DNA of 64,000 bases from Camelus dromedarius (Eukaryota), in the NCBI RefSeq assembly GCF_036321535.1, contig NC_087436.1:70558001-70622000 (forward strand), read 5' to 3'. The notes below the pieces were generated by a model that was not told the DNA's origin, searched no databases, and saw only the letters and a program-made list of their open reading frames with translations. Shown here one piece after another: positions 16,303 to 53,371 of the stretch; positions within the stretch are counted from its first letter, which is position 1; each line of letters starts with the position of its first letter. Both the position numbers and the translations under genes were made by a program.

Positions 16303-16482
16303 AGATGATTGTTGACCATCAGATTGAGACAGGCCTGTTGAAACCCGACCTTAAGGATAAGGTGACCTATACTTTGCTCCGGAAGCACCGGCATCAAACC
16401 AAGAAGTCCAACCTCCGCTCCCTGGCTGACATTGGGAAGACAGTCTCCAGTGCAAGTAGGATGTTTACCAACCCTGATAATG
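16303..16482 (+). CDS. SLC4A4: SLC4A4 internal coding exon (probably exon 6): (E)[59 protein letters not shown](G)
   Basis: Long T-rich tract then tatcAG (16301-16302); donor G|GTAATG at 16483. 180 nt, phase 1-1. Joins the previous exon as G|AG = Glu. Peptide recognisable as NBCe1. Confidence 0.97.
16456..16482 (+). other. SLC4A4: Cassette I: 27-nt segment removed by an internal alternative 5' splice site (9 aa, RMFTNPDNG)
   Basis: GCAA|GTAGGA at 16455/16456 lies exactly 27 nt upstream of the main donor, in the same phase. Splicing to 53295 gives A|GT = Ser and deletes RMFTNPDNG. This matches the known NBCe1-D/-E variants lacking cassette I. Confidence 0.85.
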
Positions 16483-25896: not shown

Positions 25897-27929
25897 GCTC
25901 TGCTAGAACGCAGGTGCCAAGTCTCAATGGGCAGTTTCATTTTCATGCCTGTCTTTGGAGCCAGGTTCTTTGCCGGTGTGTGCCAGACTCCGTGCCTCTG
26001 TCCCCTTGTTGGTGAGGGCTGTCTATGCAAAAAGGAGTTCCCAGCTTTAGTTCCCAGCAGATAATGCACTGACATGTTGAGGGGAGCAGAGGTGAGAGAA
26101 TCTGGGGGAAGTTAACTCATCAGCACCTGAGTTTTGGAGCAGCTGCTGACCTCCTGTACTCATTTGAGAAGCAAGCCATGGTATGGTAAAATTTGGGTAG
26201 CTATGGACTGATCAGAAGCTAAAGAATGCACATGCTCTTTTGAGTTTACTTCGCATTCCTAACCTCTGTCTGTGCTCACTGCTCTGGAATTTTAGTTGGT
26301 CCTTTCTTGAGCCTGGATAAATGGCAGCCGGTTGTCTAGCCTCTTCCATTTCCTTTAGCTAAGCCTGCAGGGATATTGGCTCTTTAAGCCAGTCACTCAG
26401 TTGTCAGAAGAAATAGGAGGTGAAAGTTGGCCAGTATGATAATACAGATTTCAAAATGCCTCCCTCTTAACAATAGCAATTTTGGAATAATCTCAATTGG
26501 TTCATTTCCCTTTTTCATTTTTCTTAGTGCAATAAAAACTTGCAAATAAGTTCAATTATGGGAAACAATTAAAAATTCAGATTGCAAAGAAAAGACATCA
26601 GATCTGCCTCAAACAGGTGCTGGCACAGATGGCTCGCTCACAAGTCCTGGCTTTATTTACAGCTTTTAAACACAGACAGATAAATTGACAAAAATGTTTC
26701 TAGATTTTATAATATGCCGAATGCCCAAATTTGGCCATAAACTTACATTAATTTGTAAATGATTCAGTTTAGAACCTGACCCTCCCCAGTCTCCAGTAGC
26801 CTTAAGAGGACCACTTGTCTGCCCTGTCATTTGCACACTTGTGTGAATAGAGTATCTAATCTTTTCTTTTGGTTGGTATGCTTTGTTTGTTGCTTTGATC
26901 ATTTAATGACAGTATTATTAAGGGGGAAAAGTTCCCTCATGTCAAATTGTATGTAGTCTGGTGGTTAGTTATTTCCAACCTCATTGTTGTACCTTGAAGG
27001 ATAATTATGCTCCCAACTTCTTACTAGCCTTGGAGTGGGACGTCTGATGAGAATAACAAAACAGAGGGCAGGAAACCCAAATGGAGCTATCTTCAGGCCG
27101 AAGCTGGTGGTGCTCTTGCATTGATTAAAAATACCTGGCGGAACCATGCTATAGATTTAGCCTACCTTATTATTCTGTCTTTGATGTGGTCTAAGGTTTG
27201 GCATGGAAGCACCACATATTAAAATTATACTAAAAGAAGTATTAAAGGGCACCGGAAAATGAGGACTAATATGCATTTCTAAGTTGGTTTAAGGTACTGA
27301 TTTACCTATATCCCAGTTTCATGTTTCTGAAGGGCTGAAAAACAGGAGGCAAAGGAAGTTGAAAACCAGTTCTGTGTTCGTCAAGGAAAGTGTTTCAGAA
27401 GTCACAGTATGAAATGTTGCTTTCTGCGTCGTGTATCAGCTGCTTAGAAGGGTCTGTTGGGTAGATCATAAAAAAAAGGGCCTTTCTAATATAACACCAT
27501 GCTCCCTGTGCTTCACAGAAGTGTGTGTGACTTCCCTCTGTGTGTGCTTATGTGGCGCAAGATTATTAACAATCTTGATCTTACATCTTGAGACTAGTGT
27601 TCATTATGTAAATCTTTCATCTGGCTACAATCCACGTTTTGTGTATTAGAACTTCAGGGTGGATTATCCACAGGTACTTGGGGCACTATGATGATTGAAG
27701 GTAATTTATTTTAGGCTTTTCAGTTCTGTGTTGGGATTTGTTCCACCTATGGATGCAGGGTCATGGGAGGGGGTGTGTGTCAATGTAATATGTCATTGTT
27801 CTCCTTTAACCCGCTTGTGTGATTTGCTTTAGTATTTTTTTCTTCTTAATTAATGCTTCCATCCTCATCCTTGCTGTGGCTGCTCATGTGTCCTCCTCCT
27901 CCTCCTGTCTTCTGCTTCTGACACTAAAG

Positions 27930-28025
27930 CCCGCAGCCCGCTTGAGAACTCAGTGCCCTGCCTAGCAACCCGCACCTTGGACGATGACCCCCGAGTGCAG
28001 CGCAGTCCCAGCGTGGGATGGCTAA
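27930..28025 (+). CDS. SLC4A4: Candidate non-canonical in-frame cassette exon of SLC4A4, 96 nt / 32 aa: ARSPLENSVPCLATRTLDDDPRVQRSPSVGWL
   Basis: First AG (27928-27929) after a 95-nt AG-free pyrimidine-rich stretch; donor AA|GTAAGT at 28026. Length divisible by 3, open in the required phase-1 frame, 7 CpGs. Peptide resembles the recalled SLC4A5 segment [28 protein letters not shown]. Confidence 0.68.
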
Positions 28026-28589
28026 GTAAGTCCATGACCGGGAAGGGGCAAGGATGGTGGTGGTGGGCGGGGGAGGGCACGAAGACTGGGCTCTTGGTTA
28101 CTTAGTGGAGGGCATCCTCAAGAATGCCTGGAAGGGTAGGACTCACAGGTTCCTGAATTCACAGTTACAGATTCATTTCTTCTGTTAGTCAAGAGGACAG
28201 GTACAGTGTGTCCTCCTGGGTGCAGGCTGAGTGCCTTGTAAGGCCGTGGGAGGAGTTGGAGACTAAGTCGGGCGTGGCCCTGGTAGTGCTCCTTCCAGGG
28301 AGCACTCACCAAAAGGTCAGCTTCCTCGCAGGGCTGATGATGCCGGATCTTCTTACTTCAGAGGACTGTGAGGGAGATCTCTTGAAGATGAGGTCTCCGA
28401 AAGTGGTTTGAAAGCATTCAAATGCCGAGTGAGAGGAAAAACTTTCTAAGTTAGTGGTCTGAAGAACCCCCAAGTACCCATTAAGGTACCCGGAAGGGCA
28501 GTAAGTGCTACCGACAATGAGAAAGTAGCATAGATAGAATGTTTACTTTATAAATAAATGGTTTTGTTAAAAAGACAAGATTTCAAACT

Positions 28590-47178: not shown

Positions 47179-49349
47179 GACTTATACGCAGGTGAGACAC
47201 AGAAAGAACTACCATACAGTCACGAATACTATGTATAATCACAAGGACTGCAGATTCGCTGGAGTCCTATATGGGGTTTTACCTGTTTTAGTACATTTTC
47301 TAGTACCTGTTTGTTTCTGAACATTTCCTCAGCTGTGTAGAGATTTTTTAAATGTCATATGTGTGGGTGTGTGCACGCACATGTGCAGGAAGAGAATGGA
47401 ATGCCTTAAAAAAATTAAGCTACCTAATTTAGATCATAATAAAAATTAATTGTCCAGTGCAACATTATTAGAATGGGAGTCACTGTGGTTACAGCATTTG
47501 GCTTTTGCTGGTTAAAATTTTAAAAAGACTTAGAAGAGATGAACCTTGTGTATTTGACATTGAGATGTCCAAGCCCTAACACTGAATCTGGGGTAAAGCC
47601 CACAGACTAGTTCAGAAAATTCAAAAACAGGAGGGAACAGGGTCAAGGAAGTTGAGGATGGGTCGATTACAAAGGGTCACGTGGACAGCAGAGGTCTCAA
47701 AAGGATAGAGAATGGTCTTTAAAGAGAGAATAGTCTTTGTGTTTGCCGTGCTCCTGTCGGGCCTCTGCACACTGCCAGCTCCCTCATAAGGATGCCTGCT
47801 CCGTTATCCTGGCCCCATACATTAGAGATGACTTCAGCTTTTGGCTAGAACTTGACTCACATGCGTTGTAGTTATCTGGATCTTTTGATGTCCTTCTTCT
47901 TCCTTCTTCCAAACTTACTTCACTTTCCCAGGCAATTGCATTCTTTGAGCTACTTCAGTTCCCTCAGACTCTCCTCTACCCAAGGCTCTCCTTCCCTTTC
48001 GCTGAGGTTCTGACCCCCTCCCTTACTTTTCCTCTCATTCTCGTGTCCTGATTATTCCTGCACTAGAGTTTCTCCTTTCCCCGTTCATTGCTTCTTTCCT
48101 CTGTTCCCACTGCTGACTGGCAGGGCTTTAGCCAGCTTGGCAAGGTCTTTCCATTTTGTTAGTTCTGGGCCAGCTACACACTTCTTCCTTGTTTACTCTG
48201 AGGCTTTCCAAGTCTGAAGGTTCTTGGAGTGTGCACACAGCATCTTCCACCATAGGAAATCGACTTTGAACAGTAGTGTTTTTAGTATTCACTCCAAATG
48301 GAAGTAAAATGATATTCAGTTGCTATTATCCATTCATTCACAAGTATTTATTAAGGGCCACTAGTGCCAAGCTCTGAGGCTATGACTGTGAACAGGACAA
48401 ACTAACGACCTTGGCTTTGGGCTCTTGGAGTTTACATTATATTAAATCATGCACAAACAAACAGCAGAAATCCTCTAAACAAAATAATTAAAATTGAAAC
48501 CAGCAAAAATATCCAAATTGATTTTCTCTTAGTTATGACATTCCTTCAAAGAGCTCCTTCTGACAATATTTTAGGCTTTCCTTAGTCTCATATTTACATT
48601 TTAAATATTTCTTATTTACTTGGAGGTGGGTAATGAGAATGGGTTGGAGGTTGTGATGACATGCTTGGTTTTTTTTTAGTTTCTGGTGGGGACAGCTCTC
48701 AGTGGTCTGTTGCCATCTGACAAAATCCAAGCTTATCTCAGCCATTCCTTCTAGGCTTTCTCAGTCAGACTCTTGTGAGTGTCCCAACTGATTCATTCCC
48801 CTTGTCCCATTATCTTCCCGTTGTTAGTGGTTTAAATGGGAAGAAACTGCTGTTGGAGTAACTTGAAAGGGGGGAAACCAAAATGGAAATAATGGAGAAT
48901 TGGCTGAATGTACCTTGTGGAATGCTACAAACACTTGCCTATGGCTGTGAATTAGGACATACAGAAGCATGTGGCATTATTGCTTTTATAATTACTTTGC
49001 TATTGCTTTTAGCATCCTTCCTTGTCTGCCACAGAGCTCTGGTTTGGGGGCTCCTTTTCAATCACAGTGGCAGAATAGCTGAGAGTTCAATATTTTTCTC
49101 CTTTTATTTTCTTTATGAAAATAAAAAAGTAAAGAAATGCAGACTTCATCTTTGAGGAGAGCTAAACTGGAAACCGAGTACATTTCTGTCTTAAACATCC
49201 TTCATGATATTATATTACATGGAATTGGCATGGAAATAGAATATATTCCTTGTGGTTGTACATTATATTTCCTCTTCATTAGAAATGATGACGTTTATGT
49301 GTTTATTTATGTAAATAACATAAAGAACCCTTTTTTTTTTTTTTCCTCG

Positions 49350-53294: not shown

Positions 53295-53371
53295 GTAGCC
53301 CCGCCATGACTCACAGGAATCTGACTTCTTCCAGTCTGAATGACATTTCTGATAAACCGGAGAAAGACCAG
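53295..53371 (+). CDS. SLC4A4: SLC4A4 internal coding exon (probably exon 7): (G)[25 protein letters not shown]
   Basis: Acceptor ttctgtttttccAG (53293-53294); donor CAG|GTAAGC at 53372. 77 nt, phase 1 to 0. Joins exon 16303-16482 as G|GT = Gly. Not in the ORF track. Confidence 0.97.

Follow-up and report, generated by a model that had tools for sequence, protein, structure and literature searches.

Kidney, pancreas, brain, heart and eye all rely on NBCe1, the product of SLC4A4, as a major transporter in acid-base balance, and nearly all of the functional work on this protein is founded on the variants A through E.

In the variant list of PMC4664831, SLC4A4 is assigned two promoters, two cassette exons, the variants A through E and a single N-terminal cassette, the 9-aa cassette I (cassette alpha, associated with the variants NBCe1-D/E). 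The same source describes optional, in-frame N-terminal cassettes in related SLC4 transporters, namely cassettes I, II and IV of NBCn1 and cassette A of NBCn2, and reports that some of the NBCn1 and NBCn2 cassettes alter activity or carry binding sites for partner proteins (PMC4664831). Cassette I of NBCe1 corresponds to residues 236-244 and lies in the P-loop, a disordered segment of the cytoplasmic N-terminal domain (residues 230-262) that contains 12 Ser/Thr (PMC12394656). According to the portions of that 2025 study used here, mimicked phosphorylation of the P-loop inhibits NBCe1-A by ~80%, through binding of the loop to intracellular loops of the membrane domain; the phosphosite clusters of the loop are 18 residues apart, a shorter linker gives a weaker block, and loop length matters (PMC12394656). 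P-loop deletion constructs are also reported there, and cassette I is the only cassette that these portions mention.

We have analysed a window of 64,000 nucleotides from Camelus dromedarius (contig NC_087436.1, positions 70,558,001 to 70,622,000, forward strand), to which all SLC4A4 coordinates below refer, and which includes a 36.8-kb intron of SLC4A4. An earlier note, made from the letters of this window, had proposed that the intron hides a 96-nt cassette exon resembling a segment of the paralog NBCe2 (SLC4A5). Optional N-terminal cassettes are familiar in Na-coupled SLC4 transporters, and the 96-nt exon is one more of that class; what it shares with the NBCn1 and NBCn2 cassettes is the kind of element. 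Below, we describe the exon, its conservation, its counterpart in SLC4A5 and its occurrence in database records, and we consider what it might do in the P-loop.

Results

Anatomy of the exon and its splice sites

The constitutive SLC4A4 exon upstream of the intron was read directly from the sequence at 16303..16482 (+ strand). It ends in phase 1 with ...NPDN and a lone G, and the donor after 16482 is GTAATG; the exon also contains a second, internal donor at 16455/16456, the use of which takes out the 27 nt of cassette I. The downstream constitutive exon, at 53295..53371 (+), is entered in phase 1, starts with GT AGC CCC and bears the C-terminal cluster of P-loop phosphosites. When nothing is inserted, the join at 53295 reads G|GT AGC CCC, for G-S-P...

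Between these two exons, at 27930..28025 (+), lies the alternative coding exon of 96 nt and phase 1-1, for which the evidence comes from the sequence, the reading frame, the base composition, cross-species models and the paralogous exon of SLC4A5. It is situated 11.4 kb downstream of the cassette I exon in the camel window, that is, between exon 6 of the literature and the next constitutive SLC4A4 exon. Its phase-1 translation, A-RSPLENSVPCLATRTLDDDPRVQRSPSVGWL-S, is free of stops; upon inclusion, Gly244 is exchanged for these 33 residues, which amounts to a net gain of 32. The exon has canonical AG and GT sites and keeps the frame with both flanking exons, and the frame also holds from the internal donor at 16455, when cassette I is skipped. 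The earlier note had placed the 96 nt between an AG at 27928-27929 and a GTAAGT donor at 28026, coordinates that proved to be exact, and a reading of the frame from 16482 to 53295 confirmed its claim of a stop-free, phase-1 insertion between SLC4A4 exons.

The 3' splice region, as read from the sequence, extends over 27882..27929 (+) and consists of a branch-point-like motif, CTCAT, at 27882-27886, followed by tcctcctcctcctcctgtcttctgcttct, which is rich in pyrimidines and free of AG, and then by a purine-rich spacer and an AAG acceptor. The acceptor side reads ...ctgacactaaAG, its AG being the dinucleotide at 27928-27929. The pyrimidine fraction from -40 to -3 is 0.78, the highest among the six intron candidates that were scanned. 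The 5' splice site, GTAAGT at 28026..28031 (+), follows an exon end of ...CTAA. We regard CTCAT as the putative branch point, and the AAG as a presumably suboptimal or weak acceptor.

Over a few hundred bases to either side, the exon is free of the RBFOX motif, (U)GCAUG; the nearest + strand copies of GCATG are at 27201 (~730 nt upstream) and 32953. Slc4a4 appears in the RBFOX-target table of a review, where no exon is named (PMC10874720), and PMC8881802 does not mention Slc4a4. With no GCATG nearby, RBFOX regulation of the 96-nt exon was not retained as a proposal. A Slc4a4 splicing event in PMC12881438 was likewise considered and set aside, as it concerns, to judge from the primers, the 5' end of the gene.

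Composition, chance and copy number

The frame of the exon is part of an 83-codon stop-to-stop ORF (27854-28105). Since this ORF is open irrespective of the splice sites, the open frame by itself carries little weight. We scanned the 36.8-kb intron for segments of 60-200 nt, bounded by AG and GTRAGT, in which the length is a multiple of three and phase 1 is open. Three donor places passed: the 96-nt exon, 43910/43931-44047 and 48703-48774. The combination of splice motifs and an open frame is therefore at chance level. The two other places (both +, AG...GTGAGT, open in phase 1) contain 0 CpG and are ordinary in GC content, and no extra insert from either of them was seen at this junction in the SLC4A4 models inspected. 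We take both to be likely chance pseudo-exons, and they serve as internal controls.

In composition, the 96-nt exon is singled out within its intron. Its GC content is 66% and it contains 7 CpG, with an observed/expected ratio of 0.69, as compared with 40% GC and a CpG ratio of 0.23 for the intron. Only 15 of 36,716 intron windows of 96 nt hold at least 7 CpG, and all 15 overlap the exon. The 301 bases around the exon are single-copy in the 2.3-Gb camel genome, and the exon is therefore not a repeat. By these criteria, two statements of the earlier note, that 7 CpGs stand in a CpG-poor intron and that the segment is not repeat-derived, were borne out.

The minus strand is also open across 27865-28101, with stop-to-stop ORFs of 78 aa and 57 aa, and there was no sign of an antisense gene.

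Conservation of the cassette across vertebrates

We used a 40-residue read-through translation of the window as a query against longer proteins, and obtained 110 matches among 113 candidates. Of these, 106 could be parsed, into 92 full-length SLC4A4 proteins and 14 short read-through ORFs; the four further short ORFs, which fell outside the parsing pattern, are also read-through and contain the core whole or in part. In 90 of the 92 full-length models the cassette is spliced at exactly the predicted borders, the other 2 being read-through models. On the N side, 80 of the models join after ...[ST]N.DN[A/V], and hence include cassette I, and 10 join after ...TVSSA-T, without it; on the C side, all 90 correctly spliced models continue with SSP... 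The 10 models, which read SSA-T-RSP, agree with the earlier proposal that the exon can be joined in frame to the cassette I donor.

There are 20 distinct cassette cores, each 31 residues long; the core is near-invariant, with 0 indels or stops in the 106 parsed sequences, over a range that takes in mammals at one end and ray-finned fishes at the other. Models of SLC4A4 from human, mouse and cow have the peptide exactly between ...NPDN and SPAMTHR..., and the cassette was found in other mammals including buffalo, sheep, cat and bats, as well as in turtles, many birds, a lizard, gar, bowfin, Arapaima, Alosa and Megalops. One annotated model from Danionella has a diverged copy. In our alignment of ten sequences (A1), the cores from mammals differ very little among themselves and share ~77% identity with that of gar. 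Where species differ, the exchanges are conservative at the protein level (D/E, V/M, S/T) and never alter the length; the near-invariant features are the initial RSP, SVPC, a run of acidic residues, R-V/M-x-R-[ST]-P-S and GWL.

The 14 short matches are read-through ORFs on genomic contigs of other species, in which the core is kept and the flanks diverge just outside the splice sites. The exceptions to this divergence are K/Q-A before the core, in keeping with a conserved AG, S-K after it, and the leucine-rich translation of the upstream pyrimidine tract. The residues that follow ...GWL are S-K in 14 of 14 of these ORFs, which fits a continuation through A|GTAAG. At the protein level, frame, length and peptide are conserved together, and this conservation drops at the exon borders. 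To judge from these protein comparisons, the pattern marks a coding exon on which purifying selection acts, and the exon predates the split of ray-finned fishes and tetrapods.

In some fishes (P0420, P0434, P0468; Logan contigs), the upstream exon, a short intron and a diverged cassette, …IARNPLEHPVPCL… / …IARSPQEHPVPC…, are all read in one ORF, and the cassette of these fishes lies only a few hundred bases downstream of the upstream exon, as against 11.4 kb in camel. A scan of metagenomes gave one locus (L001, 1501-1548), with a 12-residue exact match, NSVPCLATRTLD, in an unrelated, internally repetitive ORF, and this was judged to be a chance match of the pattern search.

The counterpart in SLC4A5

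Camel SLC4A5 was located on another contig of the same genome (C15). It contains an exon, L010 1031-1126, which is 96 nt long, is preceded by AG at 1029-1030 and followed by GTGAGT at 1127, and has phase 1-1 at its two ends. The exon encodes (N)RSPARSP...YG[RH]L(C). Its neighbours, an exon that ends ...DIGKSVSSTT+A and one that starts GT CAC GCC, are homologous to the exons that flank the 96-nt exon of SLC4A4. Hence in one genome the two paralogs carry, between homologous flanking exons, an exon of the same length and phase at the same intron position. The earlier note had expected a phase 1-1 exon of SLC4A5 starting at ARSP; the phase was correct, but the exon starts with (N)RSPARSP and not at the second ARSP.

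Sequence comparisons were also made. In a whole-protein MAFFT alignment, the NBCe1 cassette is in register with the NBCe2 segment RSP...G[RH]L. The NBCe2 sequence from human given in the earlier note was correct letter for letter (P0372), but its register, in which ARSP was placed upon ARSP, was four residues off, the correct alignment being ungapped over 31 residues. All ten sequences of A1 share RSP, G and L; further positions agree between individual pairs, among them the [ST].[DE][DE] and R[VM] stretch, and there is no indel against tetrapod NBCe2. We compared cassettes and segments with composition-preserving shuffles, 2000 per comparison. The gar cassette scored 54-56, ungapped, against four tetrapod NBCe2 segments, with a shuffle mean of ~19 (sd 4), and 0 of 2000 shuffles reached the observed score; against the NBCe2 segment from pipefish, 2 of 2000 did so. 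For the camel cassette, the number of shuffles that reached the score observed with the NBCe2 segments ranged from 6 to 252 of 2000. A cassette-only HMM matched three SLC4A5 representatives at the right place, with E values of 1.3-3.9 among 150 proteins, which are not significant. The 96-nt exons of camel SLC4A4 and SLC4A5 are only 26% identical. Taken alone, this similarity between the NBCe1 cassette and the NBCe2 segment is modest. Together with the exon structure, it makes common ancestry of the two exons well supported. The proposal of an ancestral, in-frame cassette exon homologous to the NBCe2 segment is upheld by its conservation and by the structure of the SLC4A5 exon. Because it is a paralog of the SLC4A5 exon, the 96-nt exon most likely predates the duplication that gave rise to NBCe1 and NBCe2.

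The two exons also differ from each other. The SLC4A5 segment was present in 120 of 120 proteins inspected, a sample of the best by score and as such biased towards carriers, and it appears to be constitutive, whereas SLC4A4 is modelled both with and without the exon. In SLC4A5 a strong CAG acceptor follows the pyrimidine tract at once; in SLC4A4 the acceptor is AAG, behind a purine-rich spacer.

A profile built from the NBCe1 and NBCe2 cassettes, applied to the matching introns of three further camel SLC4 loci, found only the exons of SLC4A4 and SLC4A5. These loci, identified by their matches to the SLC4A5 query, are C17:48444513-48479477, C11:54863702-54889435 and C4:38619770-38707768. One RRSPLEN match proved to be AT-rich intron sequence with a stop after it, and was rejected as an exon.

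Optional use and database records

The exon is optional in SLC4A4. It is not hidden, as the earlier note had it, but is found in many XP_ and TrEMBL records, and the guess in the same note that it might exist among predicted isoforms was borne out by the 90 of 92 full-length models noted above. Database models, which are the sole source here for the two forms together, include both inclusion and skipping; in chicken, P0060 has the exon and P0406 is without it. The exon may be compared with cassette I in that both are optional and lie in the same disordered N-terminal loop, directly adjacent to each other, and both combinations are seen in the predicted models (of the 92, 80 contain cassette I and 10 skip it). 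Cassette I is produced by an alternative 5' splice site in exon 6, whereas the 96-nt element is a separate exon. Furthermore, cassette I has been cloned and functionally tested, according to the portions of PMC4664831 and PMC12394656 used here, whereas we found no paper describing the 96-nt exon or its peptide; the scope of that search did not extend to the variant inventory of Parker & Boron 2013 (PMC3768104). The claim of the earlier note that NBCe1-A to -E lack the peptide agrees with the variant list of PMC4664831.

All of the named records inspected that bear the cassette are XP_, GenBank genome-annotation or TrEMBL models, and there is no curated NP_ record among them (for the mouse cluster, among the 15 of 285 members listed). 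A junction search in short proteins gave 190 matches, of which the 110 newly listed ones were inspected. The skipped form was seen in 12 of these 110, and in one Logan fragment (P0421). No spliced inclusion junction was present in the Logan- or ENA-derived proteins inspected, all carriers of the peptide being genomic read-through ORFs.

The only human and cow records seen with the cassette are 1027-aa models, P0023 (TrEMBL A0A8V8TNB1) and P0013 (A0A3Q1LUF6), and in both of them a membrane-domain segment of 84 residues that follows KEHKLK is missing (KGAGYHLDLFW...APILK). The proteins predicted by these two models would probably not transport. The same 84-residue segment is absent from 5 of the 92 full-length models that bear the cassette. 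Among the 92, the N-terminus is MEDE (B/C-type) in 89, a truncated start in 3 and A-type in 0, and 21 have a C-type end. The pairing of MEDE with the cassette, which is a feature of models, is only a hint as to which transcripts may carry the exon. The exon is known to annotation pipelines; its role in NBCe1 is what we infer.

Discussion

We have weighed three other explanations against the reading given above. That the element is a chance pseudo-exon, with splice-like motifs around an open frame and no biological meaning, has some footing in the intron itself, where two other places give phase-1-open AG...GTRAGT candidates and where, whatever the splicing, the frame stays open over 83 codons. 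Those two candidates, however, have 0 CpG and ordinary GC, and cross-species conservation and the SLC4A5 paralogy refute the idea, to which we give practically no credence. A non-coding role, as an intronic enhancer or splicing-regulatory element in which the open frame is incidental, would account for conservation in another way. The upstream intron also looks conserved, the read-through ORFs of mammals and sauropsids sharing LLLLS..A...[KQ]A, and the element is a small CpG-rich island. Yet the paralogous element of SLC4A5, equal in length and phase, is an ordinary coding exon, present in 120 of 120 proteins in the score-biased sample inspected; the substitutions are conservative at the level of protein (D/E, V/M, S/T), without change of length; and conservation falls off at the splice sites. 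We consider such a role very improbable.

A further explanation is that the exon, although conserved, is now a near-silent relic in mammals, added to gene models by homology-based predictors and making no meaningful contribution to NBCe1. The records inspected are compatible with this: no transcript-derived one has the inclusion junction, all of the named records that bear the cassette are predicted models, those from human and cow are also deleted in the membrane domain, and the NBCe1 literature gives, in the variant list of PMC4664831, only variants A through E. Disuse is hard to square, however, with mammalian cores that hardly differ from one another and match the gar core at ~77% of residues, with 0 indels or stops in 106 sequences, and with splice sites and CpG content that are intact in camel. 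We regard the relic as unlikely, if less so than the two explanations above. Our preferred reading, in which the element is a genuine ancestral cassette exon of SLC4A4, paralogous to the SLC4A5 exon, is on these sequence comparisons very probably correct.

The position of the exon suggests where it might act. In the human model P0023, where TVSSAS opens with T230, the insert has residue 244 as its first position and lies inside the segment 230-262 assigned to the P-loop (PMC12394656). It falls between the phosphosite clusters T230/S232/S233/S235 and T254-S262, straight after cassette I, a placement that rests on this numbering and on the portions of PMC12394656 cited. Of the residues of the insert, 7 are Ser/Thr, 4 are acidic and 4 are basic. 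Inclusion of the exon would lengthen the linker between the clusters from 18 to about 50 residues and would add its 7 Ser/Thr, among which are two S/T-P sites and one R-x-x-S, all three conserved. It may in this way change how far the P-loop reaches and how it depends on phosphorylation; a longer linker or the new sites could alter the strength of the block that the phosphorylated P-loop exerts on the transporter, or the kinases and phosphatases involved. Optional use of the exon probably stems from its acceptor, a presumably suboptimal AAG that is separated by 9-10 purine-rich bases from a long tract rich in CU and free of AG, a layout typical of repressible exons.

A regulatory role of the insert in the P-loop is a possibility that we advance tentatively, somewhat short of thinking it probable. 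With a similar degree of reserve, we suggest that the exon may define a set of unrecognised, tissue-restricted NBCe1 variants from the B/C-type promoter, the P-loop of which would be ~32 residues longer, with extra conserved phosphosites and with a phospho-block or regulator binding unlike that of NBCe1-A to -E; the same module would be a part of every NBCe2.

As the exon is already annotated in predicted isoforms, it is known in that sense, and it is not described in print as far as we have searched. A 32-residue insert that has been conserved for >400 million years, in the middle of a loop that acts as a phosphorylation-dependent blocking module (PMC12394656), would be a plausible regulator of NBCe1. 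If the exon does define an unrecognised set of NBCe1 variants, the intron sequence around it would matter for the interpretation of disease variants in SLC4A4.
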